DNA of 47,304 bases from an uncultured Planctomycetaceae bacterium (GTDB taxonomy: Bacteria > Planctomycetota > Planctomycetia > Pirellulales > Thermoguttaceae), in the NCBI GenBank assembly GCA_964576215.1, contig CAZNVM010000142.1:1-47304 (forward strand). Direction: 5' to 3'. The notes beneath the pieces are model-generated. The model worked only from the letters and a program-made list of their open reading frames with translations. It searched no databases and was not told the DNA's origin. Position 1 is the stretch's first letter. The number at the start of each line of letters is the position of its first letter. Position numbers and translations under genes: made by a program. This document shows, piece by piece, positions 14,009-46,334 of the stretch.

Positions 14009-17000
14009 ATGTCGTTTCCGATCAATAACTTTAATCTCAAATCGAATTACGGTTCCCTGATGGGACAGCTGAACCTGAGCCGCAACGAATCAGGGATATC
14101 GATGCTGATCCGTAATCTTAGCAGCGGACTACAAATTCACTCTGGCCGCGACGATCCGTCCGGCTTTGTTACCAGTTCGATTCTGCGTAGCGAGATCGTT
14201 TCGCTGAAACAGGCGATTACCAATTCTTCCCGGGCAAGCTCCGTTTGTAGCGTTGCCGACAGTGCGCTCGCCCAGGTGAACGTGATTCTCATTGAGATGC
14301 AGCGTATGACCGTCGAAGCGGCGAACACCGGCGTCAACAACGAAACGATTCTCCGTTCGTTGCAACTGCAAATGGACAGTTCCCTCGATTCGATCAACCG
14401 GATTGCGAACACAACGAAGTTCATGGGCCAAAACCTGCTTGATGGTTCGCTCAACTTTGTTACCTACGGTCTCGAATCGGACAAAATCGTTCATTACCAA
14501 ATCAACCAGGCCGATTTCGGCTTGATGACCGAAAAGGAAGTCTCCGTCAAAGTGCTCCAAAACGCCCAACCGGCGGTCCTGTTTTACCAGTACGGAGCGA
14601 TCAACGAAAAGACGACCCTCGAAATCGGCGGAAAGCTCGGTTATGAAGTTTTCGCGTTTGACAGAGAGGCGACCGTCGATCAAATCGCACAGGCCATCAA
14701 CATGATGACCAGCGCAACCGGGGTCGCCGCAACGGTAATGGCCCAAGCGTCGCCCGGCAATGTTTATGCGAGTTCCTACGGCAAGGACAACGACGTGATT
14801 ATCACCGCAAGCAAAGGGGGTTATCTCGAAGGGAACATCGTCGTCCGGTACACCGCTCCGAAAGAGGGGAACGGGCAGATGTCTCTGAATGTAACTCCCA
14901 GCAACGGGAATGACCCGACGGTGATCGAGGTCGTCCTTCAAACGGAAGAGTGGCAGTCGGCGATTTACCACTACAACGGCGAAAACGACGGGATTCCGCA
15001 CAACGAATTTAACTGGAAAAGCAAAATTGCCGGGACCGCTTACAACGATATTCAATTCACGATCAATAATGTACATGGAACGGACGAACCGGTCGGATTA
15101 ACGTACAACTTTGACACCAAGCCGTACGCAATCGATATCCGCGTCGATTACGACGCAGCCGATCCGCAAAGTCCGCAGAATACGACCGTCAACGACCTGA
15201 AAAGTTGGTTGCAAAACGACCCGGTTCTCTCGACCTACTTTGAAATCGAGGATGCTCTTTCGTCCAACGGGACCGGGCCGATTGTGCCGACGACGATTTT
15301 CACGCAACCGCAAATCGGCGTTAACGGCGGAAAAGTTCTTTCGACCGCCGAACAGGTTGTCAAATTGCTCAACACGTCGCCGCTTTTGCTGGACGAAAAA
15401 GGGAATGGCACCATCACGGCGTCGATTCCCTACGGTCAAACCGGCTTGGGAACCGTTGCCCCGTTCGCGGAGTACGCCTATTACGGGACGGTGGAACAGA
15501 ATAACCAATTGCAATTTCTCGGTCCGGCCGGTTCGCCGAACATTCGGTTTATGTGCGAACCGGGTACACCGCTTTCGGTCGATTACAACCGTTTTCCGCC
15601 GGTGTACGGAAAATCGACCGCAACGGTTCAAGGGACGAGTGCAAACACGACGTTTTCGCTTCGGGCACTCAGTCCCGGCAGCCAATACGACGGACTGGGA
15701 ATCATTTTTCAGGACGGCAAAAACGAATCCGCTCTGCTTGATCCGGCGAAAAACGCGATTGTGATTACGGTCGATTTTTCCGGTCGCAATTCCGACCCTG
15801 CCCGGCAGGAATTCAACATGGCGGACTTGCGGTCGCTTATTGAAAACAGCCCGACGCTCGGTTCGAAATTTGAGTTCGTTCCGCAGGTCGCGTTTGACGC
15901 CAAAAATCCCCCGGCGTTTGCAAGCTCCGACTACATTGGTGTCCATACGAAAATGTCCGAATTTTCCGGCGGACTTCTTGATCCGGGAAAGCTCGTCGTT
16001 CACCTGGAAACCGACGTCAACGGCAACGTGCTAACGACCGCCGCCGATCTGGTCCGGTTCTTCGACAATCCGGCCGGCGAGGAAGCGAAAGCGATTTTGA
16101 ACCAGCTCGGTATCAGCGTTTCTCTCGTCGATCCGACCAACGGAGCGACCGTGAATTGCGGAACGGATATGTCCCGGGTCGGACTCGGCCCGCTTGAACC
16201 GACGTACTGGCCGATTTGTCCGGGAGACGATAATCCGCAGATCGCCGACATTAGGTTTACCAGTTTCTACGGCGACACGAGACCGCAATATCCTCAAGCG
16301 ACCATCGTTGCACGGGACGGAATCAATTCCGTGTTCCAAATCACCGGAAGGAAAGCGGACGGTTCTCTGGAGGGGGTGTCGGTGCTTGTCGTGGACGATT
16401 TCACGCTTGGAAACGATCCCAATGCGAAAGTCGCTTATGATTTGATTTCGAAGCAATTTACGATTTCGGTCAACCCGTACAATCCGCCGACGGCACGGGA
16501 CGTCGTTGATTTGATTAACAAAACGGAAACCGTCAACATGCTGTTTACGGCGTCGATTCCGCAGTGGATTCCCGGTACGACGATCATTCCCAACGGAGCA
16601 GGTTGGGTTCGTTCCGGGGACGGTGGGACGCTGAAAGTCGAACAAACGGGACCGGCTCTCGGGATTCCGATGATCGGCAACAGCGATCACGGAAGCGTCG
16701 GACTTGCAATTTATTCGGTCGATTATGGCTCAAACGCCTTTGTTTCGGTCAAAGCGATTCAGGGAACAAATTTTCCGGTGATCGATTCCTGCGGCAATTA
16801 TTCCGAGCGAACGAAAGGCGTGGACATTAACGCCCTGATTAACAACATGCAGGCGGTTGGCAACGGTCAAATCGCGTCAATGAGCACAAGCGATCTGGAC
16901 GTTTCGCTTTGGATTGATCCGACGTTGTTGCCGGGAAGCGTCTTCGGATTCCGAATCACCGGCGGCGGTGCGCTCATGCAGCTCGGTCCGGAAGCCAATT

Positions 17001-17395
17001 CACTATCGCAGGCGAGAATTTCGTTTCAGGATATTCACACCACGAAGCTCGGTGGTGTCAGCGGGTACTTGAGCGAACTGCGGAGCGGAGCCGGAAAAGA
17101 CCTGTTTACGGACACGAAAGCGGCGTATAAAATCGTTACGGAAGCGATTGAGGAGATTTCATTCCTTCGCGGCATGATCGGGACGTTTCAAAAGAATCAG
17201 GTCGAAATCGGCATGGAACAGATGGAAGACGTTCTGGAAGCGTCGGTTTCCGCCGACAGTTTGATTCGTGACACCGATTTCGCGGTTTCCAGTTCGCAGT
17301 TGGCGAGACAACAGGTTCTTCTCCAGGCCGGGATCAGCGTGCTAAGTTATCCGAACGAAATGAACCGGCAGTTGCTTGGATTGTTGCAACGGTAA
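14009..17395 (+). CDS. giant flagellin-family protein (1128 aa)
   Basis: N-terminal flagellin domain (LSSGLQIHSGRDDPSGFVTSSILRSEI) and C-terminal flagellin domain (LIRDTDFAVSSSQLARQQVLLQAGISVLSYPNEMNRQLLGLLQR) flank a central insert of about 850 aa. Confidence 0.85.
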   Translation: MSFPINNFNLKSNYGSLMGQLNLSRNESGISMLIRNLSSGLQIHSGRDDPSGFVTSSILRSEIVSLKQAITNSSRASSVCSVADSALAQVNVILIEMQRMTVEAANTGVNNETILRSLQLQMDSSLDSINRIANTTKFMGQNLLDGSLNFVTYGLESDKIVHYQINQADFGLMTEKEVSVKVLQNAQPAVLFYQYGAINEKTTLEIGGKLGYEVFAFDREATVDQIAQAINMMTSATGVAATVMAQASPGNVYASSYGKDNDVIITASKGGYLEGNIVVRYTAPKEGNGQMSLNVTPSNGNDPTVIEVVLQTEEWQSAIYHYNGENDGIPHNEFNWKSKIAGTAYNDIQFTINNVHGTDEPVGLTYNFDTKPYAIDIRVDYDAADPQSPQNTTVNDLKSWLQNDPVLSTYFEIEDALSSNGTGPIVPTTIFTQPQIGVNGGKVLSTAEQVVKLLNTSPLLLDEKGNGTITASIPYGQTGLGTVAPFAEYAYYGTVEQNNQLQFLGPAGSPNIRFMCEPGTPLSVDYNRFPPVYGKSTATVQGTSANTTFSLRALSPGSQYDGLGIIFQDGKNESALLDPAKNAIVITVDFSGRNSDPARQEFNMADLRSLIENSPTLGSKFEFVPQVAFDAKNPPAFASSDYIGVHTKMSEFSGGLLDPGKLVVHLETDVNGNVLTTAADLVRFFDNPAGEEAKAILNQLGISVSLVDPTNGATVNCGTDMSRVGLGPLEPTYWPICPGDDNPQIADIRFTSFYGDTRPQYPQATIVARDGINSVFQITGRKADGSLEGVSVLVVDDFTLGNDPNAKVAYDLISKQFTISVNPYNPPTARDVVDLINKTETVNMLFTASIPQWIPGTTIIPNGAGWVRSGDGGTLKVEQTGPALGIPMIGNSDHGSVGLAIYSVDYGSNAFVSVKAIQGTNFPVIDSCGNYSERTKGVDINALINNMQAVGNGQIASMSTSDLDVSLWIDPTLLPGSVFGFRITGGGALMQLGPEANSLSQARISFQDIHTTKLGGVSGYLSELRSGAGKDLFTDTKAAYKIVTEAIEEISFLRGMIGTFQKNQVEIGMEQMEDVLEASVSADSLIRDTDFAVSSSQLARQQVLLQAGISVLSYPNEMNRQLLGLLQR

Positions 17396-18853: not shown

Positions 18854-20025
18854 AGCTCGTCGTTCGTTTGCGGTGTTTCAGGACCAGGTTCGATTTCTTG
18901 TGGTTGGGCATCCTCCTCCGTCTTGTTCTCTTCCGCCGCCGGAACAGGGTCTTGCTGCTTTTGTTGTTGCTCCTGCTGTTTCGGTGGTGCATCCAATCCT
19001 CTTCCCAAGCCGAGGATACAGACGGCAATCACGAGCACGATAATCCCGGTGTAGACCCAACGGACCGCCATTCTTCCAGCGTTGCGCCATTCGCCGGTCA
19101 GGAATCCGTTAAAATTTCCGACGATAATCGCAAACGCCATGAAGACCGTGTAGCCGACCGACACGCCGAGGGTGCCGAGCTTGCTCGCTCCGAATCCGAA
19201 AAGGGTGACTGCGGCGTCATGCAAAACCGCCATGATAAGAGCGATCACAATCGCAACGACGGCCCTCGGCGAGAGAAAACACTTCCACGTCTTGTTTTGG
19301 TTCAATTTCATCACACAGTACAGGCAGGACGAAAAGAAACCGCCAAAAAGAATCAGGCAGGTTGCCGGGAGCGAGTTGCGCCAATCGACGATTGCGGCGG
19401 CTTCGGCGGTTTTGCCGATTGCGTCGGCGAAGCTAAATGCAATTGCGTAACAGGCACAAAGAACGCCGGAAACCAACGCAAGCAGCAAACCGGGCAGAGC
19501 ACTTTTTTTCGGTTTGTCGTTTTCCGTCACGGGAGCGTTGTTGGCTTCGTTGGCGGCCTTGAGCATCCCGGCCCGACCGCAAATCACGACGCCGACAAGG
19601 CAGACCGCAACGCCGATCAAAATGACGATACCCGACGTCGTTTGGAACTTTTCCGGTGTGTGAATCAACATCGGACCGATGGAACCGACGATAATCTGCC
19701 CGCCGTAATTGATGCCATACGCAAGGGACAAGCCGATGAAGGCGAAGCTCAGGCCGAGCGTCATGGAACCGAGTCCCCATAAAAATCCGAACACAAACGG
19801 AAGGAGTAGCCCCAAAAATCCGACCTTGGTGTAGATTCCCAGGAGGCCCGGCACGAGGAATGGACCGGCGGCCAACGGCAAAAGCAACGTCGCAAATAAA
19901 AAGAACGGTCCCCAGAGGATTTCCCAAGGGAGGTCTTTCGAAACGAATTTGCTTGGCAGACCGAACGATCCGCCGCACATTGCCCCAAATAATAGAATTG
20001 CAAAACCGACGACAAGATCAAGCAT
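18850..20025 (-). CDS. L-rhamnose/H+ symporter (RhaT) family transporter
   Basis: Multi-TM protein. The C-terminal core GEWRNAGRMAVRWVYTGIIVLVIAVCILGLG closely parallels E. coli RhaT KEWNNAGRRPVTVL...IVGIG. The N-terminus MLDLVVGFAILLFGAMCGGSF...PWEILW fits RhaT, so the start is taken at 20025 (the track ORF reaches 20070). There is an acidic, Gln-rich C-terminal tail. Confidence 0.8.
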   Translation of the reverse strand: MLDLVVGFAILLFGAMCGGSFGLPSKFVSKDLPWEILWGPFFLFATLLLPLAAGPFLVPGLLGIYTKVGFLGLLLPFVFGFLWGLGSMTLGLSFAFIGLSLAYGINYGGQIIVGSIGPMLIHTPEKFQTTSGIVILIGVAVCLVGVVICGRAGMLKAANEANNAPVTENDKPKKSALPGLLLALVSGVLCACYAIAFSFADAIGKTAEAAAIVDWRNSLPATCLILFGGFFSSCLYCVMKLNQNKTWKCFLSPRAVVAIVIALIMAVLHDAAVTLFGFGASKLGTLGVSVGYTVFMAFAIIVGNFNGFLTGEWRNAGRMAVRWVYTGIIVLVIAVCILGLGRGLDAPPKQQEQQQKQQDPVPAAEENKTEEDAQPQEIEPGPETPQTNDEL

Positions 20026-20114
20026 TGTGACACCGTTTGAAGAAAGGAAAAACAGGAACGAGTTGAACACACCGCGACAGTCTATCCGTTTTGAAATCGG
20101 ATTTCAAGCCCCAC

Positions 20115-20276
20115 GCACAATCAGAGCCGCGTACAATCAGAGCCGCGCACAATCAGAGCCGCGCACGGAGTAAGCGGTTTTCACGTTGCCACCGGGGTCA
20201 CCGCTTACTCTGTGCGCGGCTCTGATTGGGTTCACGGTTGGCGAAAATGTTGCCTCATTGGCGTTGAATAGTATAC
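20115..20276. repeat. palindromic element copy 2 (inverted loop orientation, left-arm 15-mer triplicated) plus conserved right extension
   Basis: (c/a)acaatcagagccgcg(t/c) x3, then stem acaatcagagccgcgcacggagtaagcgg / ccgcttactctgtgcgcggctctgattg, then gggttcacggttggcgaaaatgttgcctcattggcgttgaatagtatac. Confidence 0.9.
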
Positions 20277-20367
20277 CTCCAGGGGAATTTACATGACCGG
20301 TTGAAGTCGTCATAATACGATATGGTGTTTTGCAGTTCCTTCCTTTCCCAATTTCCCTGTCGATTCC

Positions 20368-21750
20368 ATGCTTCGTACCGATGAAATTCTTTCGACAATC
20401 CGTATGTTACATGCGGAGCACCTTGATGTTCGTGCCGTGACTCTTGCGTTGAATATCAACGATTGCGCCGCGCCGGGGAGTGAACAGGTTTGCCGAAAAC
20501 TGCACCATAAAATCACCTCCAAAGCGAAACGACTTGTTCAGGTTTGCAACGAAGTCGGTGCCAAATACGGTATTCCCGTAACGAACAGACGTTTGGCCGT
20601 CTCGCCGGTTTCCACGCTTTTGGCCGGGCATGGACGAACGGCGGCCGTCGATATTGCGAAAACGCTGGATCGGGCAGCGACCGAGTGCGGCGTCGATTTC
20701 GTCGGTGGATTTACCGCTTTGGTTCACAAGGGAATTTCGCAAGGTTCGCAAATCGTGATCGACTCCCTGCCGGAAGTTTTGGCGTCAACAAGCCGGGTCT
20801 GCTCTTCCATTAACGTCGCTTCCCGAAAGGCGGGGATCAACATGGACGCCGTTCGGCAAATCGGGGAAATCCTGCCGAAAATCGCCGACGCCACCCGGGA
20901 AAGCCGTGGGTTCGGTTGCGCAAAACTGGTCGTGTTCGCCAACATCCCGGAAGACAATCCGTTCATGGCGGGAGCGTACATGGGGGCGGGGGAACCGGAA
21001 TCGACGATTAACATCGGCGTTTCCGGCCCCGGCGTCGTGGGGAGTGCGCTCAAACGCCGAATCGCCGACGCCGGATCGACTAAAAAACTGACGCTCGGCG
21101 ACTTGGCGGAGGAAATCAAGACGACGAGTTTCCGTGTAACCCGGGTCGGTGAGCTGATCGGTCGGGAAGTTGCGGAGATTCTCGGCGTTCAGTTCGGGAT
21201 CGTCGATCTTTCACTCGCTCCGACTCCAACGGTCGGCGACAGCATCGGCGAAATTCTCAAGACGCTCGGAATAGAGAAAATCGGTGCACCCGGCTCGACG
21301 GCGGCGGGGGCGATGCTGAATGACGCCGTGAAAAAAGGGGGACTTTTCGCGTCCAGCAGCGTCGGCGGACTCAGCGGAGCGTTCATTCCGGTTTCGGAGG
21401 ACGCAACCCTGGCGGACGCCGTTGGTCAGGGGCATTTGGTCCTCGAAAAGCTCGAAGCGATGACTTCCGTGTGCAGCGTCGGGCTGGACATGATTTTGAT
21501 ACCGGGCGACACGCCGCCGGAAACGATCGCGGCGATTATCGCGGACGAAATGGCGATTGGCGTCATTAACAACAAGACGACGGCGGCCCGGCTGATTCCG
21601 GTTCCCGACGCCAAAGCGGGAGACGTGATCCATTTCGGCGGTCTGTTTGGGTCGTCGCCGGTCCTGGAAGTCCGCAACATCGGGGCAAGCTCCCAATTCG
21701 TTCGATTCGGCGGCCGCATTCCCGCTCCGCTACAATCGCTGGGAAATTGA
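20368..21750 (+). CDS. UPF0210 (DUF711) family protein
   Basis: 460-aa ORF. The N-terminus ...ILSTIRMLHAEHLDVRAVTLALNINDC matches the conserved UPF0210 start (..I.MI....D.R.IT.G.SL.DC), and the length is typical. Confidence 0.8.
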   Translation: MLRTDEILSTIRMLHAEHLDVRAVTLALNINDCAAPGSEQVCRKLHHKITSKAKRLVQVCNEVGAKYGIPVTNRRLAVSPVSTLLAGHGRTAAVDIAKTLDRAATECGVDFVGGFTALVHKGISQGSQIVIDSLPEVLASTSRVCSSINVASRKAGINMDAVRQIGEILPKIADATRESRGFGCAKLVVFANIPEDNPFMAGAYMGAGEPESTINIGVSGPGVVGSALKRRIADAGSTKKLTLGDLAEEIKTTSFRVTRVGELIGREVAEILGVQFGIVDLSLAPTPTVGDSIGEILKTLGIEKIGAPGSTAAGAMLNDAVKKGGLFASSSVGGLSGAFIPVSEDATLADAVGQGHLVLEKLEAMTSVCSVGLDMILIPGDTPPETIAAIIADEMAIGVINNKTTAARLIPVPDAKAGDVIHFGGLFGSSPVLEVRNIGASSQFVRFGGRIPAPLQSLGN

Positions 21751-21760
21751 GAATCCATTT

Positions 21761-22690
21761 CTACAGGATTTTTCGTTCTTTTTCCGGAAGGTACGCCAAT
21801 TCTTTTCGGCAGCGTTCGCAGAGTTTTAGCATCGTTTTCAAGTCCAGCGTTTCCGCACGGGTTTTGTCGTCGAAATTCATTTCAAACATAACCCGATCAA
21901 TCGTTTCTTTCGAAAGCGTCTGTTTGAACGCACTGCATAACTCGCTACGGAGAAATTTTCGGCGATGGAAAAACATCGCACGGCAAAATTCGTGAAAGAA
22001 TTTCAGGTCGGGAATTTTGTTGCGTCGCTTTTCATCGTAGGTAATTCGCAAGATTGCCGAATGGACTTTCGGACGTGGCCAAAAAACGCTCGGCGGCATC
22101 ACTCGTACCAACTCCGTCTTGCACTGCGACTGCATCCAGAGCGACAACGCCCCCCAGTCTTTGGTGCCGGGTTCGGCAGTGACCCGGTCGGCCAGCTCCT
22201 TCTGGATCGTTACGGTCATCGAGTGCGGCGGTATATCGGTCAACAACAAATTCGACATGAGCGGAGTCGCAATACTGTACGGAAGATTGGCGACCAACTT
22301 GAAGCGTCCGCCGGGAACCAGGGCAAGTCGTTCCCGTACGGCGGTGAGAACCTCGTCGCTGAGTTTATTCTTGTTTTTCAGGATGTCCGTTTGGAGAAAC
22401 CGGATATTGGTCCGCCCATACAGTTCCTGCTTCGCCAACTCGTGCAACACGGAATCAAGTTCAACGGTAATCACGAACGCCGCCCGGTCGGCCAGTTCGG
22501 CGGTGAGCGAACCGGTCCCGGTTCCGACTTCGAGCACGATGTCGTTTTTTTCAAGGTTCGCGGATTCGTACAAAAGCCGCAACAGATTCAAATCGATCAG
22601 AAAATTTTGTCCGAGTTTGGCACGCGGACGAATTCCGACCGTTTCGAATTTTTTCATCAAGTAAGATCGCGTTTGCTGGTTTTTGTCCAT
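21761..22690 (-). CDS. rsmA: 16S rRNA (adenine1518/1519-N6)-dimethyltransferase
   Basis: KLGQNFLID motif and the SAM-binding VLEVGTGTGSLT. The start is taken at the ATG at 22690 (MDKNQQTRSYL...), because the upstream part of the track ORF has no KsgA counterpart. Confidence 0.9.
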   Translation of the reverse strand: MDKNQQTRSYLMKKFETVGIRPRAKLGQNFLIDLNLLRLLYESANLEKNDIVLEVGTGTGSLTAELADRAAFVITVELDSVLHELAKQELYGRTNIRFLQTDILKNKNKLSDEVLTAVRERLALVPGGRFKLVANLPYSIATPLMSNLLLTDIPPHSMTVTIQKELADRVTAEPGTKDWGALSLWMQSQCKTELVRVMPPSVFWPRPKVHSAILRITYDEKRRNKIPDLKFFHEFCRAMFFHRRKFLRSELCSAFKQTLSKETIDRVMFEMNFDDKTRAETLDLKTMLKLCERCRKELAYLPEKERKIL

Positions 22691-25511: not shown

Positions 25512-25641
25512 GAAACCGTTTACAAATAACAACGGCAGACGGGATTTCCCTGCGATTCGGTCCGGTCGCTTCACTTCGTTGCGCTCCCGGCTGCCATTCT
25601 TTAGCCGCCCGGAAAATTTTTAAAATATTTCTTTGGAATCG

Positions 25642-25671
25642 TTGACAAATTTAGGCAATCTAGGTTAAAAT
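25642..25671 (+). promoter_or_regulatory. candidate sigma70-type promoter (TTGACA-N18-TAAAAT) ahead of the pilM-like operon
   Basis: TTGACA at 25642-25647 and TAAAAT at 25666-25671, inside a 398-nt non-coding gap. This implies a leader of about 230 nt before the ATG at 25910. Confidence 0.35.
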
Positions 25672-25909
25672 AGAAGGGGGTAGAGGAGGATTGCCGAACC
25701 GTTTACAGCGATTGTAGTGAATTTCGTTGCGGTGCCGATAAAAATCCCTGCTCAAAACGACGATTCCCTGCCTGGTACCGCCAGTTAATTAGTAAACAAC
25801 AAGTATACTTAAGCGAGGGGTTCGTCCGCAAAGGGTTTCTTTTCTTTCGTTATTCACAAATCAGCAGCGTCCATCCGTTCGGCGTCAGTATCGCCTGAGA
25901 GATTCAAAT

Positions 25910-28327
25910 ATGGCCAGAAACGAAACCGTTTGGGGAATCGACATAGGCAGTACGTCGCTTAAGGCACTCCACTGCCGCGAGTCGTCCGAGCCGGGCAAAA
26001 TCGAAGTGATCGGCTTCGATTTCATCGAACACTCGAAAATCATGTCGCAACCGGGTGCGGAACCGGCGGAAATCCTCGTTGAAACCCTCAAGGAATTCCT
26101 TGCCCGAAACAACACCAGTGGGAGCAGGGTCGCGATCTCCGTTTCCGGGCAAAACACGATTTCCCGCTTTCTTCCGCTTCCTCCGGTCGATGTAAAAAAA
26201 GTTCCGGACATTATCAAATACGAAGCGAAACAGTGGTTGCCGTTCGACCTTCAAGACGTGATCTGGGACTACCAGCCGCTTGGAAAAGGACTTCCTCCTT
26301 CCGGTCTCGTACTCGATGCCACCGTCGGTATGTTTGCGATGAAACGGGACATCGCCATGAAAGCCATCACCCCTTATATCGATTTGGGGATTGATGTGGA
26401 TTGCATCCAGAGTTCGCAACTCGCCGTCTATAATTACGCCGCTTTCGACCAGCTCAATGTCGAAGAAATCGATCCCGACAATCCGCCGGACCAAGTCGTT
26501 ATTCTCAGCGTCGGGACCGACGCAACCGACGTTATTGTTACCAACGGCGTAACCATCTGGACCCGAAGCATTCCCATTGGCGGAAACTCCTTTACCAAGG
26601 CGATGACCAAGTCCTTGAAATTGACGTTTGCCAAAGCGGAGTACCTCAAGCGGAATCCGACGTCCGGCGACGATCCCAAGGCGGTGATCCAGGCGATGCG
26701 CTCGGTTTTCAACGATATGCTCAGTGAAGTCCAGCGTTCGTTGGAGTATTATTCGAGTTTGAATCGTAAAGCCAAGTTCACGAAAATACTGGCATTGGGG
26801 AACGCCTTGAAACTTCCCGGACTGCAACGGTTCCTGGGGGACAACCTTTCACTGGAAATGGTTCGACCGACTCTTTTCAACCGCTTGATCGGTTCCGAAG
26901 TGCTTGCGTCCCCGGTTTTCAAGGAAAACCTCAGCTCTTTCGGCGTCGCTTACGGTTTGGTAACGCAACTTCTTGGGGAATCGTCGCTCTCGACCAATTT
27001 GATGCCGAAGGAAGTCGTGATTGAACGAATCATTCAGGAAAAGAAACCGTGGGTTCTTGTGGCGGCGGCGTCCTTCCTGCTCGGTTTGACCATTGCGTAT
27101 TCCGGTGCGACCGGGGCTTTGGAATCGGTCAAACGCGGCGAATACGGCACGGCGGAAACAAAGGCGTCTTCTGTGGAATCGGCGTCGAGTCGATTGACCA
27201 GCGATGCGAAGACGAGTGCCGACGAATTCGTGAAAGTCGATAATGTCGGGAAAAACCTGACTGGCAGCGTGGAAGGACGGATTATATGGCTGGAATTTTT
27301 CAAAGCTCTTAATAGTGCTTTGCCAGCGGACCAGAATTTCGGTGCGGCGATGCTTCCCGAACAGCCGGAAGAACGGGCCAAAGCCATCTCCAAACAAAAC
27401 CGGATCTACATCACGGGTATTGATACGCTTAAAATCAGTGACGCCGCTCCCTGGTGGGCGAGAGTCAAAGAAGAACGCTGGTACACGCCCTCGCAGGAGG
27501 AACTTGATGAAGTAAAAAAAGCAAGTGGCGGCGGGGACTCCGATAGCGCAGGCTCTGTTTCCATCGGGGGGGGAGAAGGGGGGGAAAAGGCCATTCTGGA
27601 TTCTTTGCCCGGTCCACCGTCAGGCGTTCCGTGCCGATTGGTACAACTCACGGGATACCATTATCACAACGACGAGAAGGATCAGGTGATGTATGCGGGA
27701 AACTACCTTCGCCTAACGATTTGCGAGACGATCCGAACCGGCAGTGTAATCTTGCCCGTCAGTCTGGAACGTCAAATTGAAACCGGGTTGACAGATCAGG
27801 AGGAAGTAACGTTTAAGGAACTCGGTTTTATGTATCCCGTCGTTATCTTCCCGTCGAAACCGGAACGGATCACAATATTGGATCCCAAAGCCGTTCTGGA
27901 ACAGGAAAACAAATACCGATTGGAACAGCTCCGGAGAAATTCAGGTTCCCGAGGGGTTGACAATACAAGTGCTATGTATTCGGGAGGTTCCGTTCCCGCC
28001 AACATGGTGGGAAGCTCCCCTCGCGGCCCCATCGGTTCCGGTGGCGGCAGACTTGGAAGCGACGCGAACCTCGACAAAATCGCCGGTGACCTTAGTGACG
28101 ATCAAAAACTCAGAGACATTTCCGTTTACAATTTCGTTATTCAATTCATCTGGGTGGAAACGCCTCCGAGCGAACGGGACCGAATCAAAAAAGAAAAAAA
28201 ACAATCTGAGGAACAAGTTGTAAACAGTGCAACAGATACGTTGGGCACCGACGGCACAGGTACCCTGTCACCTGATCCCACGGAAGTCGTGCCGCAGGAG
28301 AATGTCCCGGAAGAAGCCGCATTATAG
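25910..28327 (+). CDS. PilM-PilN-like (GspL-like architecture) fusion protein with long C-terminal extension
   Basis: The N-terminus has an actin-like ATPase fold signature of PilM (WGIDIGSTSLKAL ... ILSVGTDATDVIV ... IPIGGNSFTKA). Then NLMPKEV + TM (PWVLVAAASFLLGLTIAYSG, about 27045-27110) as in PilN. The last 330 aa or so have no family I recognise and include Gly-rich low complexity. Confidence 0.8.
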   Translation: MARNETVWGIDIGSTSLKALHCRESSEPGKIEVIGFDFIEHSKIMSQPGAEPAEILVETLKEFLARNNTSGSRVAISVSGQNTISRFLPLPPVDVKKVPDIIKYEAKQWLPFDLQDVIWDYQPLGKGLPPSGLVLDATVGMFAMKRDIAMKAITPYIDLGIDVDCIQSSQLAVYNYAAFDQLNVEEIDPDNPPDQVVILSVGTDATDVIVTNGVTIWTRSIPIGGNSFTKAMTKSLKLTFAKAEYLKRNPTSGDDPKAVIQAMRSVFNDMLSEVQRSLEYYSSLNRKAKFTKILALGNALKLPGLQRFLGDNLSLEMVRPTLFNRLIGSEVLASPVFKENLSSFGVAYGLVTQLLGESSLSTNLMPKEVVIERIIQEKKPWVLVAAASFLLGLTIAYSGATGALESVKRGEYGTAETKASSVESASSRLTSDAKTSADEFVKVDNVGKNLTGSVEGRIIWLEFFKALNSALPADQNFGAAMLPEQPEERAKAISKQNRIYITGIDTLKISDAAPWWARVKEERWYTPSQEELDEVKKASGGGDSDSAGSVSIGGGEGGEKAILDSLPGPPSGVPCRLVQLTGYHYHNDEKDQVMYAGNYLRLTICETIRTGSVILPVSLERQIETGLTDQEEVTFKELGFMYPVVIFPSKPERITILDPKAVLEQENKYRLEQLRRNSGSRGVDNTSAMYSGGSVPANMVGSSPRGPIGSGGGRLGSDANLDKIAGDLSDDQKLRDISVYNFVIQFIWVETPPSERDRIKKEKKQSEEQVVNSATDTLGTDGTGTLSPDPTEVVPQENVPEEAAL

Positions 28328-28413
28328 TCGGCAACCGGCAAACGGCGGAAATCCGAACTTTCGCTGTCAACCGTCTGCCACTTATCGTTTCATTTTTCAT
28401 TTTTCATTTACTC

Positions 28414-30057
28414 ATGGCCAAGGCGAAACAAAAAATCACCAAAGGGGACATCAAAAAAATACTCTTTTGGGTTTCCTGTCCCATCGCGATCATTTGCGGT
28501 GTCGTCGTTTATTTTTACGCCGTGGACGCGATTTCCGCCGATATCGAGAAGCGTAAACAGGAATTGGAAACCAAGAAAACCTCAATGGGGAGAATTCAGT
28601 CGAACTCCACGCACCCGAACGAAAAGACGATTGCGGAAATCGACGAGATGACATCCGACCTGCGCAATCGTGTCATGCGGGCGTGGCTCACCCTGGAACG
28701 TGATCAAAGGAAAAGAAACCAGTGGCCGGCGGCCTTGGGAGCGGATTTTCATCGGATCATCGAAAAACTCAAACCGGGGGACGAAATACCGTTCCTTATG
28801 TGTGAGCGTTATTTTCAATTCGTGGAAAAGCAGATTCCCATTATGCTGGATACTGTTGGAGCGAGAAAACAACAGTACAAGAAGTACAAATATAAACTCA
28901 AAGACGATGTTCCCATTCCCGAACTTGACGCCAAGGGGGAGCATGTGTTCGAATGGGCCGATGTCGTTCCGAATTGGGGAATTGGTCTGCCCAAAGGCGA
29001 TACGAGTAGCTTTGGCGGCAACACTGCCCCCCGTTCTCCACGTGGCGGGCCAAGCAGGTCCGACAGTTCAGGAGGCACGGGACCTGCTTCAGGGAGTAGT
29101 CCGTTTTTGGACAGCGAAACACGTTGGGTCGGAAGCGTTGATTGGCCCAATCCGGAGATTTTCGGACTCCTGCTGGAAGGTCAGATTCCCCACTATCTTC
29201 AAGTCTGGTACGCTCAGGAAGACATGTGGGTTTACGATGCGATTCTTTGGGTGGTTCGTCAAACCAATCTGCTCGGTGAAGAAGAGTTTCCTCCGGGAAA
29301 GGATACGTTGGCAAAATCTCCGATCAAACAAATTCAGAGCATTAAGATCGGTGCCCCGGCGGCGATGGCGTTTACCGCTGTGGGAATCAGCGGTCTATCG
29401 AGTGGAGGTGGCGGTGGAGAGGGAGAGGGAGGCGGAGAGGGAGGCGGCAGCGCGATGGAAGGTGCCGGCATTGGCGGTCTGCTCTCGGCCTCGTCGGATG
29501 CTCTCAAGCGAACGATTCTTCAGTTCCGTTATGTCGGAGAGGATTTGGCACCATTAGGGGCCGACGCATCGTCATTTGCCGAGTTCAACCGTATGCCGAT
29601 CGTGTTGAGTCTCACTATCGATCAACGCCGGATTTCCGATGTGTTGGCCAACTGTGCCAACTGTGCAATGCCGATTGATGTACTTTATGTGGCCTTCAAT
29701 CTCGGTCGGGGAAACGGAGTCCGTCCGTTGGGATTCTCGGAAGCGGCGGGTGAATCCGGTACGACGGGGAGAACCGGCGGTGAATACCAAGTCAGCGGTT
29801 CCGTCGGGATTTACTCTCCCGAAGCAATTCAGGTCGAAATTTACGGAATCATTAACATTTTCAATGCGTTGGATTATTCCGAACTGGCAGCCGTACAGAA
29901 AGCCGCTGAAGAAAAGAAGAAAGAAGTTGCCGCGATGAATGTTTCGCCGTCGGAAGTCCTATTAGAACCCTTGACACCGGAAGAAACAATCAACGAGGAA
30001 GGGAACCGGCCGGGACCGGCCCTGGATGAAAATCCGCCGACACCGGAAGGAGAATAA
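28414..30057 (+). CDS. bitopic membrane protein, unknown family (PilO/GspM-like topology only)
   Basis: MAKAKQK... Lys-rich N-terminus, a single TM (ILFWVSCPIAIICGVVVYFYAV), a coiled-coil-like segment (DIEKRKQELETKK) and a Gly/Glu low-complexity stretch (GGGGGEGEGGGEGGG). Confidence 0.75.
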   Translation: MAKAKQKITKGDIKKILFWVSCPIAIICGVVVYFYAVDAISADIEKRKQELETKKTSMGRIQSNSTHPNEKTIAEIDEMTSDLRNRVMRAWLTLERDQRKRNQWPAALGADFHRIIEKLKPGDEIPFLMCERYFQFVEKQIPIMLDTVGARKQQYKKYKYKLKDDVPIPELDAKGEHVFEWADVVPNWGIGLPKGDTSSFGGNTAPRSPRGGPSRSDSSGGTGPASGSSPFLDSETRWVGSVDWPNPEIFGLLLEGQIPHYLQVWYAQEDMWVYDAILWVVRQTNLLGEEEFPPGKDTLAKSPIKQIQSIKIGAPAAMAFTAVGISGLSSGGGGGEGEGGGEGGGSAMEGAGIGGLLSASSDALKRTILQFRYVGEDLAPLGADASSFAEFNRMPIVLSLTIDQRRISDVLANCANCAMPIDVLYVAFNLGRGNGVRPLGFSEAAGESGTTGRTGGEYQVSGSVGIYSPEAIQVEIYGIINIFNALDYSELAAVQKAAEEKKKEVAAMNVSPSEVLLEPLTPEETINEEGNRPGPALDENPPTPEGE

Positions 30058-30155
30058 AGGTCAGCCCCGGGCAGGAGTCGTGTAAACTCGATACCGGAAT
30101 AGCCCGGGGGAAGTCCCGACGCTAACTCAAGTCATAGCAACCCATTTGAAATATC

Positions 30156-31970
30156 ATGGCAAAAGCGAAAACGGAAACAAAAGCGGAAGCGAAAGCGGAA
30201 ACGAAAACAAAGCCCAAAAAAAAGAACAAAGCGGGAATCAAGGAGTTTTTCGTTTATCACGTGGAAAAACTCGTGCTGGGGGGCGTTGTTATCGTTTCGC
30301 TTTGGTGGGCTTATTCCGGACTGACTGGCCACAAATCGCTCCCCTGGCAACCGTCCGCATTGGAGCAAGCCGCCGACCAGGCCAAACAGCATATCGAAAA
30401 CTCCGGCGTAACGCCGCGTCAATTCGATGAGAGGTTGTTCATCATCGAGTATGACGAAAAAGCAACCTGGATCAAAAGAGACATTTCCCAAGTGGCGTAT
30501 GCGACGGACAGAAAATGGGAACCAACGCTGTTTCCGGATAGAATCAAACGTGATACCCCGACGATTTTCCCTGTGGAATCCCTTCGCTGGACCCCCGGCC
30601 AAGGCGCGATTCTTACCATTGACCGGAATCCGCCCAAGACGCCGGGAACCACCGGACGCACATCGGGGACGACGGGACGCACGACAGGAACGACGGAAAT
30701 TGCGAGCGGAGTCGGCAGCGGCAACACAATCGTCCCGAGACAATGGCTTGTCCTCACCGGTTTGATTCCGATCAGGAAGCAGTTGACCGAATATTTGAAT
30801 CGCTATTCCAATTCGATGTTCACCGACCCGGTAATCGACACGCCGCAGTTTCTTGCCTATGAAATCGAACGCTGCGAATACGATCCGACGCCTGGTGCCG
30901 TACCGCAATGGGAAAAGATCGATGCGGTCCTCCAGTATTCCATCGAATTGAACGAGTGGGGCGGTATTGGGGCCGAGCAAGTGGACCCTTCCTATCTGGC
31001 CCCGGTTGTCCCGGGAATGATCCCCATGGCTTACCCGCTTCCTCCGATGGTGCAAAAGCTCTATGGAGAAGAAGTGGCTTATCCGCCTTACATTCCGCTT
31101 TTGGCCGATTCGCTCATCGAGACAATGGAGCAACAGGAGGAAAAATTGAAACAACTTCAAGATTTCAAACCGGTTGACACGAACGGTTTGATTGACAGAA
31201 TTAGTCGGGGTACGGTGGGCGGTGGTGCGAGTGCGGAAGGACGAAGTGGTGTCATGCCGTCTGGAATTCAGACACAATCGGTTGTTCAGGAATCTGTTCG
31301 CCCGCCGCTGGTCGATCATTATCTGTTTCGCTTTTTTGATTTCAATATCGAAGGCAAAAAAAGCTACCAATACCGCGTCCGTTTGATTTTGAAAAACCCC
31401 AACCATCGTGTGGCCCCAAAATTTCTCGAAGACGAACGTTTGAATCAACTGCCGGTTCTTTACTCCGATTGGTGTGATCCGTCTCAACCGACGTCCGGTG
31501 TACGAACGTCGCGTGTTCTCGTGAAAGACGTAACAGCTCCGGCGGCCAAACGGGCGTCGCAGGAAACGTCGATCAAGCTGTTGCCGATTTACTTCGACAT
31601 GGAGGACGCCAATGAATGGTTCGGAGACGACAAAGCGAACATTTATCCCGGAATGGTTGCGAACTTCCCCTCGACAACCACGTTCAATTCCAATTTCAAT
31701 TCCAATTCGAACCTCGCTAATCAACAGCCACCCGCAAAACCGTCGCCGACCGGTGGTGGAGGGAATCGCCCGAATCAAAAATTGGAAACGAAAACGGTGA
31801 ACATCGTTTCCGATGTCTGTTTTCTCGGTGCTTACGGAGGTTTTCCCGTCGAGGGGAACAGTCGGTCGCCGGCCAAAGTGCTTCTCATGGATGCCGGAGG
31901 AACGGTCGTGTTGCGCAATCTCGGCACCGACCTGGATGAATCGCAGAATTATTCGAAAACCGCTCCCTAA
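30156..31970 (+). CDS. bitopic membrane protein, unknown family
   Basis: MAKAKTETKAEAKAETKTKPKKK N-terminus, a single TM (LVLGGVVIVSLWWAYSG), the heptapeptide repeat TTGRTSG/TTGRTTG and an Asn/Ser low-complexity stretch. The 634-aa antisense ORF is judged a shadow. Confidence 0.75.
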   Translation: MAKAKTETKAEAKAETKTKPKKKNKAGIKEFFVYHVEKLVLGGVVIVSLWWAYSGLTGHKSLPWQPSALEQAADQAKQHIENSGVTPRQFDERLFIIEYDEKATWIKRDISQVAYATDRKWEPTLFPDRIKRDTPTIFPVESLRWTPGQGAILTIDRNPPKTPGTTGRTSGTTGRTTGTTEIASGVGSGNTIVPRQWLVLTGLIPIRKQLTEYLNRYSNSMFTDPVIDTPQFLAYEIERCEYDPTPGAVPQWEKIDAVLQYSIELNEWGGIGAEQVDPSYLAPVVPGMIPMAYPLPPMVQKLYGEEVAYPPYIPLLADSLIETMEQQEEKLKQLQDFKPVDTNGLIDRISRGTVGGGASAEGRSGVMPSGIQTQSVVQESVRPPLVDHYLFRFFDFNIEGKKSYQYRVRLILKNPNHRVAPKFLEDERLNQLPVLYSDWCDPSQPTSGVRTSRVLVKDVTAPAAKRASQETSIKLLPIYFDMEDANEWFGDDKANIYPGMVANFPSTTTFNSNFNSNSNLANQQPPAKPSPTGGGGNRPNQKLETKTVNIVSDVCFLGAYGGFPVEGNSRSPAKVLLMDAGGTVVLRNLGTDLDESQNYSKTAP

Positions 31971-32034
31971 AGAGGTGCCATGTGGTTGATCGTATTTATT
32001 TAGCCGCCTCGTCCTGCGAGGAGAACCCGTTTTC

Positions 32035-33408
32035 ATGATTCGTACTCTCCTCGTTTTTTCCTGGTTGCTTTTGAGTTTACCTTCGATTTTCGCGGCGGAA
32101 ATCGAAGGAACCCCCTGGGAATGGACGCCGTATTCCCTTGGGATTTATCTTGACGCCGATCAGGAGACCTTGCATCGTTTTCACGTTCGGGAAGTCGGGG
32201 ATTTGATCCCGCTTCTCCGTCCTCAAATCGAAGAAACGTTTCGCAACTGGATCGGCGGACTTTGGACGCCGGCATTCGAAACCGGCTCTTTCCCGGAAGA
32301 ACTTTTTGATGAAGACCGGTTTCTCCGCAAGGAGACCCCCTCTTCTTTGGAATCGGAATTCGACAAGCATACGTATCTCCGCATCGAATCGACGGCGGAC
32401 TCCATTCGTGTGGAAGCCAGGGAATGGGATATTCGTACAGGAACGGCGTTCGGATACGCCGTCAGAACAATCGACAATGATTCCGAGTTGGCCGACGCGA
32501 TTTTTCAGGTGGTCCTCGCCGTTTTTTCCCCGATTGCCGTTGTGGAACAGATTCAATCGAACAACGTCGTCCTGCGGCTTCGCGGCGGGGAGTTGATTCC
32601 CCGGGACGTGACGCCGAACATCGTCGGGAAGGGGCGTGTTTTCGTACCGTTTATTCGCGTCCGGAATTCCTCGGGCCAGGTGGAAACGACGAGACCGATT
32701 CCCTGGACGGTGCTCCTTGTCGATTCGGTCCAACAAAGCCGCGTCGAATGTTCCCTGGAAGCGGGAATACGCAATCCGTTGACAATGCGACGCCGTGGCC
32801 GCACCGAGCAAATCGCGATTTTGCCGCACCTGGAGGAAAAACCGACCCGTTTGCTGATCCAAGCGAGAACGCAAGCCGCCTCAAGCGATTCCCCGCGGAT
32901 TTTTACGGCCAAATACGGGATATTTGAGAGGGAGCCGGACAGCGATAGAGGGGTTTTGCTCGGTGAATCCAACGCCCTGGGGGAGTTTATTGTACCGTAT
33001 TTACCCGGTTCGCCGATTCGCCGTCTGATGATTCGCGAAGGAAACATGCTCATCGCACGTCTTCCTTTGGTTCAGGGCTGGAAATCGTCCATTCCGATTC
33101 TGGTGCCGGACGACGAAGTCCGCATTGCGGCGGAAAGCGTCATGATGGGAATTCAGGAAGAGGTGATCGACCAAATCACGCTTCGCATGATTCTCAAAGC
33201 CCGAATCGAAAAGTATGAAAAGTCTGGCAACACGCAGGGACTGGCGAAAGCCAAAATCGATTTTGAACGATTGAAATCCCGTGAACATTTTTTAGTCCAA
33301 TTGGAATTGGAACGGAGAAAATACCATTCTTCCGACCCCATCGTTCAAAAAAGACTTGAAAACATGTTCGAAGCGACCCGGAAAATTATTGAACAGTATT
33401 ACAAATGA
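32035..33408 (+). CDS. secreted protein, unknown family
   Basis: Signal peptide MIRTLLVFSWLLLSLPSIFAAE and a C-terminal helical, charged region. It starts 64 nt after the previous gene on the same strand. Confidence 0.75.
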   Translation: MIRTLLVFSWLLLSLPSIFAAEIEGTPWEWTPYSLGIYLDADQETLHRFHVREVGDLIPLLRPQIEETFRNWIGGLWTPAFETGSFPEELFDEDRFLRKETPSSLESEFDKHTYLRIESTADSIRVEAREWDIRTGTAFGYAVRTIDNDSELADAIFQVVLAVFSPIAVVEQIQSNNVVLRLRGGELIPRDVTPNIVGKGRVFVPFIRVRNSSGQVETTRPIPWTVLLVDSVQQSRVECSLEAGIRNPLTMRRRGRTEQIAILPHLEEKPTRLLIQARTQAASSDSPRIFTAKYGIFEREPDSDRGVLLGESNALGEFIVPYLPGSPIRRLMIREGNMLIARLPLVQGWKSSIPILVPDDEVRIAAESVMMGIQEEVIDQITLRMILKARIEKYEKSGNTQGLAKAKIDFERLKSREHFLVQLELERRKYHSSDPIVQKRLENMFEATRKIIEQYYK

Positions 33409-33438
33409 CCTCTTGCGACGCACTGCAAACCATTATCG

Positions 33439-33639
33439 ATGAAATTAAGAATTAACGGAAAAGAGCGAACGGTTCACGACGGAGCAACGCTTGCCGAATT
33501 GCTTGAACAACTCGAACTTGCCGGAAAATACGTTGCCGTCGAGCGAAACAAGGAGGTCGTCCCCTTCCGAACTTATGCCGAAACGGTTCTCGCCGAAGGA
33601 GATTGCCTCGAAATCGTCACCCTGGTCGGCGGAGGATAA
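33439..33639 (+). CDS. thiS: ThiS/MoaD-type sulfur-carrier (ubiquitin-fold) protein
   Basis: 66-aa ORF, MKLRINGKERTV...LEIVTLVGGG, with the C-terminal GG. It starts 30 nt after the preceding gene. Confidence 0.85.
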   Translation: MKLRINGKERTVHDGATLAELLEQLELAGKYVAVERNKEVVPFRTYAETVLAEGDCLEIVTLVGGG

Positions 33640-33776
33640 TTAAGGGCATCGGGAATCGGAAATCGGAAATTAGAGGAAGCTTTATCACCTATGCCCTATG
33701 CCCAATGCCCTATGCCCTATGCCCTTAAATTTCAACACCTTTTCCGGCTTCATAACCAATCCGTTTACACTTTGAG
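33640..33776. repeat. GGGCAT-type heptamer hairpin plus module Y
   Basis: ttaagggcatcgggaatcggaaatcggaaatt ... cctatgccctatgcccaatgccctatgccctatgcccttaa, then module Y ttaaatttcaacaccttttccggcttcataaccaatccgtttacactttgag (33725-33776, about 90 percent identical to 4910-4961). Confidence 0.9.
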
Positions 33777-46280: not shown

Positions 46281-46334
46281 TGTTGTTCTCCTTGTCAATT
46301 GAAATGGTGAAAGATGATGTGAAAGGTGTCACAA

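Follow-up and report, generated by a model that had tools for sequence, protein, structure and literature searches.

The nearest described system to the genes considered here is the Amuc_1098-Amuc_1102 cluster of Akkermansia muciniphila, a member of the Verrucomicrobiota and thus of the same Planctomycetes-Verrucomicrobia-Chlamydiae (PVC) superphylum. In the literature, it figures as a gene cluster for type IV pili in which Amuc_1098 is PilQ and Amuc_1100 is a protein of approx. 30-33 kDa. For planctomycetes themselves, genome descriptions list type IV pilus genes, with PilM, PilN, PilO and PilQ among them. In Escherichia coli, the hofMNOPQ genes are flanked by mrcA and aroK, and the surrounding 10 kb contain neither an ATPase gene nor a pilin gene. 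We analyzed a contig of 47,304 nucleotides (nt) from an uncultured Planctomycetaceae bacterium (GenBank assembly GCA_964576215.1, contig CAZNVM010000142.1; hereafter the window, which is the whole contig; the searches for partner genes in it cover the contig alone). Open reading frame (ORF) calling placed four genes, g1 to g4, on its forward strand, with 86, 98 and 64 nt between them. An initial annotation, made from the sequence alone, had described these four same-strand genes (805, 547, 604 and 457 amino acids [aa], respectively) as an orphan PilM-PilN fusion heading an operon of unrecognisable envelope proteins, and had proposed a stand-alone machine different from the type IV pilus (T4P) and the type II secretion system (T2SS). 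All four ORFs are present where it had placed them, and each has conserved homologues. Our analyses indicate that g1, g2 and g3 (hereafter the triad) probably encode what corresponds, in a planctomycete (PVC-type) form, to the PilM-PilN-PilO-PilP alignment subcomplex of a T4P-type, secretin-dependent envelope machine.

The protein encoded by g1 begins with an actin-like domain that is matched by Pfam PilM_2 (PF11104) at aa 9-350 (E = 7e-25; 88 bits vs. a cutoff of 27), over profile positions 1-335 of 340. A g1 family profile compared to the Protein Data Bank (PDB) matched Myxococcus xanthus PilM (3jc8) over the whole PilM domain (E = 1.2e-40) as well as PilM chains from T. thermophilus and P. 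aeruginosa, with E-values for the PilM chains ranging from 1e-40 to 1e-13. The domain is followed by the motif NLMP and by the single hydrophobic segment of the protein, which corresponds to aa 380-401; residues N363, L364 and P366 of the motif, and then K378, K379 and W381, are invariant among 20 homologues. PilN-type proteins bind PilM through an N-terminal NLxP motif. The succession of PilM domain, NLMP motif and transmembrane (TM) segment reported by the initial annotation is therefore well founded, and g1 carries both the PilM-family cytoplasmic domain of the acetate and sugar kinase/Hsp70/actin (ASKHA) type that characterizes PilM of type IVa pili (T4aP) and, though fused to it, the NLLP-type motif with one subsequent TM helix that characterizes PilN. 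Moreover, the NCBIfam model Amuc_1101_fam (NF045709, "PilM-like pilus complex protein") matches aa 1-476 of g1, i.e., it extends through the TM helix (E = 3.6e-50). In the periplasmic part, residues V454, E455, G456, R457, W460, H584, H586, N587, F746 and W748 are invariant among the 20 homologues, which represent both clades of a rough neighbor-joining tree of g1. More than 2000 g1 homologues of 730-960 aa were found, many of which already carry the name "pilus assembly protein PilM"; the named homologues are from Planctomycetes (Thermoguttaceae, Planctomycetaceae, Pirellulales). Overall, g1 is a predicted PilM-PilN-type (GspL-like) fusion that is related to, and not an equivalog of, Amuc_1101.

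The proteins encoded by g2 and g3 share a MAKAK start, a single TM segment and low-complexity stretches (Gly/Glu, TTGR and Asn/Ser), all as initially annotated. The AlphaFold2 model of g2, which was built from 15 aligned sequences (predicted local distance difference test [pLDDT] 62.9; predicted template modelling score [pTM] 0.55), shows a TM helix with a coiled coil (aa 10-63), linkers that are disordered, and an alpha-beta core at the C-terminus. When this model was compared to the PDB with Foldseek, the top 14 matches were all Amuc_1100, M. xanthus PilO or P. aeruginosa PilO (probability 0.47-0.99). A T4aP PilO is a bitopic protein with a coiled coil and a ferredoxin-like core, and the g2 model corresponds to this with its TM helix, long helix and alpha-beta core, with weak E-values for the structural matches. 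Among sequence families, Amuc_1100_fam (NF038287) was the commonest NCBIfam match of g2 relatives (2 of 15 and 7 of 51 relatives in two sets; best E = 2e-4). A Pfam search of the 51 g2 relatives gave no PilO match and no recurrent PilO, PilP, GspM or GspC family, and a PDB sequence search with the g2 family profile yielded nothing credible. These data suggest that g2 is probably a bitopic PilO/Amuc_1100-like protein, a relative rather than an equivalog of Amuc_1100. Comparison of profiles with hhalign aligned aa 376-428 of g1 to aa 14-64 of g2 (probability 93.6%); this TM-juxtamembrane similarity fits a putative PilN/PilO-type paralogy, although likeness of TM segments is weak evidence. We also considered g2 and g3 as paralogues of each other and rejected this possibility (hhalign probability 1.6%), as their clustering by BLAST stemmed from low complexity. 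Comparisons by hhalign of the g1, g2 and g3 families with E. coli HofN, HofO and HofP, respectively, gave no signal, the sensitivity with single sequences being low.

The third protein of the triad has a Lys-rich stretch behind its MAKAK start, one TM helix and no lipobox. Its AlphaFold2 model is confident (74 sequences; pLDDT 80.8; pTM 0.72) and comprises a TM helix (aa 36-57), an alpha/beta region (aa 141-267) and beta-rich C-terminal domains (aa 389-600); in the models of both g2 and g3, the segments with low pLDDT coincide with the Gly/Glu, TTGR and Asn/Ser linkers. A Foldseek search of the PDB with the g3 model found nothing at E <= 0.001 and returned only generic tandems of immunoglobulin and fibronectin type III (Ig/FN3) domains (E >= 0.04; probability <= 0.2). 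Pfam, NCBIfam and PDB sequence searches over 74 g3 members gave no match, and no signal of a PDZ domain, a homology region (HR) domain or GspC was detected in g3, either by Foldseek or by Pfam over the 74 members. PilP of T4aP is a lipoprotein with a small beta-sandwich HR domain, and neither property was found in g3. The homologues of both g2 and g3 are all named "hypothetical protein" and are without Pfam domains; the C-terminal domain of g3 is conserved between both clades of the g1 tree. What g3 has in common with PilP or GspC is only its place in the gene order, after the PilO-like gene and ahead of the secretin gene, and its bitopic topology. We conclude that g3 represents a new, uncharacterised family in the PilP position and is not an ordinary PilP or GspC. 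Genes 2 to 4 had been called unrecognisable in the initial annotation, and Pfam and NCBIfam indeed returned nothing significant for g2, g3 and g4 of the window; this description still holds for g3, but it does not hold for g2 with its PilO/Amuc_1100-like model.

A scan of species-representative genomes with the g1 family alignment recovered at least 568 encoding stretches, from which 80 loci were taken with 10-kb flanks (individual loci are given L numbers below). ORFs were called in all loci and were searched with hidden Markov models (HMMs) made from the window proteins and from the secretin of one relative. Among 81 loci with a g1 homologue, a g2 homologue followed in 72 and a g3 homologue came next in 54, and practically all loci whose DNA extended far enough downstream had the same-strand g1-g2-g3 triad. 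The triad is thus a co-linear conserved unit across Planctomycetota. Loci were regarded as informative if they had at least 1.5 kb of DNA beyond g3 (n = 45); in 22 of these, a secretin of 1100-1500 aa is encoded directly 3' of g3 on the same strand. Two representative secretins showed a C-terminal PF00263 domain with weak TPR or STN matches ahead of it. Encoding of a secretin together with the subcomplex genes is a characteristic of T4aP, which the window lacks and which its relatives show in these 22 loci. Where a secretin was absent, the fourth genes of the six loci scanned were mutually unrelated, i.e., BacA (twice), a sulfatase, NadA, an aminotransferase and a heptosyltransferase (GT9).

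Giant secretins of 1100-1750 aa near the triad were observed at L001:17719-21675, L025:16602-21053 and L032:3569-8803 (minus strand) and in 20 other loci. The one in L032 is a canonical secretin of 1745 aa with four Secretin_N repeats, which is encoded divergently upstream of g1. No recurrent ATPase or pilin gene was found within 10 kb of the triad, and 1 of 85 loci carried T2SSE ATPases. In this locus, from Aeoliella sp. SH292 (L080, NZ_CP197417.1), g3 is followed by uvrA and then, approx. 3.5 kb past g3, by two ATPases (19550-22306), one of 565 aa with MshEN and T2SSE domains (PilB-type) and a second with T2SSE. The proposal of an orphan, stand-alone and different machine is not supported, in view of the giant secretin behind g3 in 22 of the 45 informative loci and of the PilB-type ATPase near the Aeoliella triad. 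The initial annotation had, in addition, taken the lack of an ATPase or pilin gene within 10 kb as a sign of a new machine, but such a lack is ordinary for pilMNOPQ-type operons, e.g., hofMNOPQ.

DUF1559 (SBP_bac_10) proteins are encoded a few kb from the triad at L083:19279-21084, L085:3182-4318 and L081:4480-5529 (minus strand), and those of L085 and L081 also bear an N-terminal methylation (pilin-like) motif. DUF1559 genes are very numerous in planctomycete genomes, and their proximity to the triad may be due to chance.

The fourth gene has a different history. The initial annotation had treated g1 to g4 as one block, but the neighbourhood test retained g1 to g3 only: a search of 82 related loci for g4 homologues came up empty, both with a threshold as loose as E <= 10 and with an HMM of the family. 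A g4 gene is located behind g3 only in the closest relatives (L083, L087 and L090). The g1 and g4 proteins of L083 are 71% and 55% identical to those of the window, respectively, and in L084, whose g1 is 59% identical, Rho and not g4 is encoded behind g3. A role of g4 as a conserved fourth operon member was rejected because of its absence from the 82 loci and because of the unrelated fourth genes elsewhere. That g4 might be part of a split secretin, or an N-terminal fragment of one, was likewise rejected, as g4 shows no similarity to the secretin. The g4 family itself is large, with 1084 cluster representatives at E <= 1e-3 (845 when E <= 1e-10 is required); a metagenome scan with a narrower g4 alignment recovered 13 short contigs only, and a PDB sequence search with g4 found nothing credible. 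In three independent longer contigs (L086, L100/L101 and L102), a gene of this family closes a conserved operon whose products are, in order, ~250-aa protein, ExbB, ExbD, ExbD, ~1100-1240-aa protein, SBP_bac_5 (770-1020 aa) and g4 family protein. The ~1100-1240-aa protein shows PQQ-type propeller matches in 2 of the 3 contigs, and the g4-family gene and its predecessor overlap by 4 nt. The layout of this operon is reminiscent of Tol-Pal or Ton. Judging from these gene orders, the ExbB/ExbD operon is the ancestral home of g4, which was relocated behind the triad in one lineage. In our view, g4 is a passenger from another operon and no core component of the machine.

The N-terminus of the g4 protein is signal-like, in agreement with the signal peptide reported initially, and g4 is accordingly a predicted periplasmic protein. 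The stretch that the initial annotation had delimited around the four genes does contain them, but its end coincides with the stop codon of a fifth gene that it did not mention; this gene, thiS, begins 30 nt past the g4 stop codon and its product is matched by PDB ThiS chains (E = 4e-9 to 2e-4). Like g4, thiS is not regarded as a core component of the machine. As g4 was relocated and thiS follows it at only 30 nt, tight same-strand spacing is no proof of a functional unit at this locus.

Several observations weigh against the assignment of the triad to a PilM-PilN-PilO-PilP-type subcomplex. Neither g1 nor g2 reaches the curated cutoffs of Amuc_1101_fam and Amuc_1100_fam; g1 scores 171 bits against an equivalog cutoff of 650 with the former (and 114 bits against a cutoff of 133 with the TIGR01175 pilM model), and g2 of the window does not match the latter. 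The Foldseek E-values of g2 are weak (0.02-1.5) and its model, with a pLDDT of 62.9, is only moderate, and g3 resembles PilP and GspC neither in sequence nor in fold. Pfam searches of the large ORFs and motif and HMM searches of the 47-kb contig revealed neither a secretin nor PilB/PilT, PilC, a prepilin peptidase or a pilin, which bears out the earlier statement that no T4P or T2SS partner lies near the locus. An adjacent secretin was found in none of the 14 informative loci of the window's clade in the rough tree, a clade that consists of Thermoguttaceae-like and "Planctomycetaceae" metagenome-assembled genomes, with L083 (GCA_031549565.1), L078 (JBMNGC01) and L068 (JAFRAC01) among its members; in the other clade, an adjacent secretin was found in 21 loci and not in 10. 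In the genome of the window, no secretin gene is adjacent to the genes of the triad, and the "orphan" look of the locus is probably a matter of gene dispersal and of a short contig. As the invariant periplasmic residues of g1 and the C-terminal domain of g3 are kept in both clades, we argue that the triad does the same job in both. According to the initial annotation, genes 2 to 4 as ordinary PilO/PilP/PilQ or GspM/C/D homologues, or relatives in which the block is always embedded in a complete T4P or T2SS locus, would speak against a separate machine; the secretin link and the PilO-like g2 point in this direction, but g3 is not an ordinary PilP or GspC.

By analogy with the architecture of T4aP and T2SS, the periplasmic part of g1 and the g2 protein would pair as a PilN-PilO-like heterodimer, and g3 would take the part of PilP or GspC in bridging g1 and g2 to the secretin. 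The PilM domain of g1 would couple this scaffold to a PilB/PilC motor and platform encoded elsewhere, and the long disordered linkers may provide the reach needed across the enlarged planctomycete periplasm.

One alternative is a T2SS-type machine in which g1, g2 and g3 would act as analogues of GspL, GspM and GspC and couple a GspE ATPase to a secretin for protein export. The chain of actin-like, TM and periplasmic parts in g1 is indeed the architecture of GspL, and g3 is bitopic like GspC and not a lipoprotein like PilP. However, g1 matches PilM_2, TIGR01175 and the PilM chains of the PDB, while no GspL family matched it at E <= 1 in Pfam or NCBIfam; similarly, the closest structures to g2 are PilO and Amuc_1100 and not GspM, even though one of the 51 g2 relatives weakly matches T2SS_GspM_XpsM (E = 0.042), and neither a PDZ nor an HR domain was found in g3. 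The GspL cytoplasmic domain, the GspM family and the HR and PDZ domains of GspC, which together would characterize a T2SS, are thus not found in g1 to g3. GspE shares MshEN and T2SSE domains with the Aeoliella ATPase, which would therefore suit a T2SS as well, but a second T2SSE ATPase lies beside it and a PilB/PilT-like pair suits a retractile pilus better. On balance, we regard a T2SS-type machine as unlikely.

A second alternative is the initial proposal, in which g1 to g4 would act together as a stand-alone, secretin-independent module that was repurposed, e.g., for envelope organisation or for division without FtsZ. A secretin-independent function in the window's clade is still conceivable because of its 0 of 14 loci with an adjacent secretin, and g4, from an ExbB/ExbD (Tol/Ton-like) operon, was recruited directly behind g3, a protein of unknown family, in the lineage of the window. 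The triad of the window is, however, orthologous to that of the secretin-linked loci and has the same invariant residues, and dispersed T4P genes are normal. Furthermore, the absence of g4 from 82 loci and the presence of Rho behind g3 in L084 argue against a conserved four-gene unit, and thiS, 30 nt past g4, shows that spacing implies no shared function here. PilM and FtsA share the actin fold, and this likeness had led the initial annotation to speculate on a role in envelope or cell-cycle organisation; the Pfam FtsA model does match g1 in part (aa 198-311 only), but with 31.2 bits it remains below its cutoff of 31.8, and the TIGR01174 (FtsA) model gives 27.7 bits against a cutoff of 175.85, with PilM models scoring far higher. 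The full, SHS2-containing architecture of the FtsA family is thus not found in g1, and we consider a stand-alone module of g1 to g4 very improbable. The assignment of the triad to a T4P-type alignment subcomplex remains the reading that we favor.

Planctomycetes have an enlarged periplasm and crateriform envelope complexes. The crateriform structures have been described as "press stud-like" links between the outer and the cytoplasmic membrane, from which pili-like fibres emerge that bind polysaccharide. These fibres have been implicated in the uptake of whole polysaccharides, with their protein components not identified, and a 2025 review regards the mechanisms and players of crateriform structures as still unknown. 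It is tempting to hypothesize that the triad is the molecular basis of this crateriform-structure or fibre apparatus, but we hold this to be rather doubtful. If it were the case, g3 would represent a new class of adaptor that replaces PilP, and the recruitment of g4 would hint at a link between the fibre machine and uptake driven by the proton-motive force. A triad that occurs throughout the phylum and is often linked to a secretin provides, in any case, concrete gene targets for work on the planctomycete envelope, and its structural tie to the medically studied Amuc_1100 cluster of Akkermansia makes a shared PVC-type pilus scaffold plausible. Literature on planctomycete PilM-secretin or crateriform gene sets yielded genome-annotation mentions only, and we found no paper on the triad, on the fusion architecture or on the g3 family. 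While the scaffold type and the PilM annotation of g1 are already known, the planctomycete composition (i.e., the fusion, the oversized PilO-like protein, the third family and the giant secretins) appears to be undescribed.

Table. Coordinates of the features of the g1-g4 locus (positions in the window unless a locus label is given).
Feature	Position	Strand	Description
Promoter box TTGACA-N18-TAAAAT	25642-25671	+	sigma-70-like, 11/12 consensus positions
5' leader of g1	25672-25909	+	conserved blocks and hairpin/U-run at ~25813-25848; 4-sequence alignment
g1	25910-28327	+	805 aa; predicted PilM-PilN-type fusion, Amuc_1101-like
g1, cytoplasmic actin-like PilM domain (aa 9-350)	25934-26959	+	Pfam PF11104 and PDB PilM matches
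g1, NLMP (aa 363-366), basic stretch and single TM helix (aa 380-401)	26996-27112	+	PilN-like N-terminus
g1, periplasmic part (aa 402-805)	27113-28324	+	conserved blocks split by low-complexity linkers
g2	28414-30057	+	547 aa; bitopic, probably PilO/Amuc_1100-like
g3	30156-31970	+	604 aa; bitopic periplasmic protein, uncharacterised family in PilP/GspC position
g4	32035-33408	+	457 aa; signal-peptide protein, lineage-specific addition outside the conserved module
thiS	33439-33639	+	66 aa; ThiS-like sulfur carrier with C-terminal GGG
g4-family home operons	L086:870-11395, L100:468-11428, L102:1340-11434		

The initial annotation had also pointed to a 398-nt non-coding leader with a TTGACA-N18-TAAAAT box ahead of g1, and both are indeed present. 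The leader extends from 25512 to 25909, immediately behind a BamB/PQQ-type propeller gene that ends at 25511. In an alignment with the two closest relatives (L083 and L085), both the TTGACAAA -35 box and a -10 region rich in A and T are kept; promoter-like sites are no more numerous here than the shuffle expectation, so that position and conservation alone speak for the box. Blocks of the leader are conserved in an alignment across the window, L083, L085 and L084, and the equivalents of the approx. 240-nt interval listed in the table are L083:9760-10000 and L085:6052-6295. This interval contains a conserved GC-rich hairpin followed by a U-rich run, with a weak consensus fold that rests on 3 sequences; the hairpin and U-run could be an attenuator, the covariation from 3 to 4 sequences being weak. 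A search of the whole window with Rfam gave zero matches, and no terminator or inverted repeat was found 3' of g4. Two 7-nt tandem arrays (ATCGGAA x3.3 and CCTATGC x5.4) lie at 33648-33725, between thiS and the squalene/phytoene synthase gene.

The large ORFs elsewhere in the window that were scanned with Pfam are housekeeping or unrelated genes; Pfam matches identify GatB, FabF/FabG, starch synthase, a flagellin-like protein and LysA, as well as squalene/phytoene synthase, a PEP-CTERM protein, a member of the amylase family and a protein resembling a phage capsid. The flagellin-like protein (14009-17395, plus strand) has 1128 aa, with Flagellin_N and Flagellin_C ends and a centre of approx. 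900 aa between them. A Phage_capsid_4 gene (45114-46298, minus strand) is located near the contig end beside small ORFs without Pfam match; it could be what is left of a prophage or, alternatively, encode an encapsulin-like protein.

Compared to the known systems, the triad resembles the T2SS in that g1, as a single chain with actin-like, TM and periplasmic parts, is similar to GspL, that g2 would be a bitopic partner like GspM, and that g3 is bitopic like GspC and is encoded beside the secretin in relatives. It differs from the T2SS by the profile matches of g1, which are to PilM and not to GspL, by a g3 that is without PDZ or HR domain, and by g2 relatives of which a single one among 51 shows a weak GspM match. 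With the T4aP pilMNOPQ operons (M. xanthus, as in 3jc8, P. aeruginosa and E. coli), the planctomycete loci share the order PilM, PilN/PilO-type proteins, third periplasmic component and secretin, the PilM fold and PilN-type NLxP motif (in g1), the predicted PilO-like core (in g2), and a location apart from ATPase and pilin genes, as for E. coli hofMNOPQ. In contrast to T4aP, PilM and PilN are one polypeptide in g1, and g3 is a bitopic protein of 604 aa with no detectable homology to PilP and no lipoprotein signal; moreover, all planctomycete periplasmic parts are 3-4 times longer, and the locus in the window has no secretin. The Akkermansia cluster differs as well, in that g1 remains far below the equivalog cutoff of Amuc_1101_fam (171 vs. 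650 bits), the planctomycete proteins are much larger (547 aa for g2) and have long disordered linkers, g3 matches no NCBIfam family, and the planctomycete secretin, which is unlinked in the genome of the window, has 1100-1750 aa with TPR and STN segments. On the other hand, g1 matches the Amuc_1101 HMM over the PilM domain, the TM helix and the start of the periplasmic part, the g2 model is closest to the crystal structures of Amuc_1100 and g2 relatives match Amuc_1100_fam, and the secretin Amuc_1098 is encoded within the cluster, as is the secretin in 22 of the 45 planctomycete loci.

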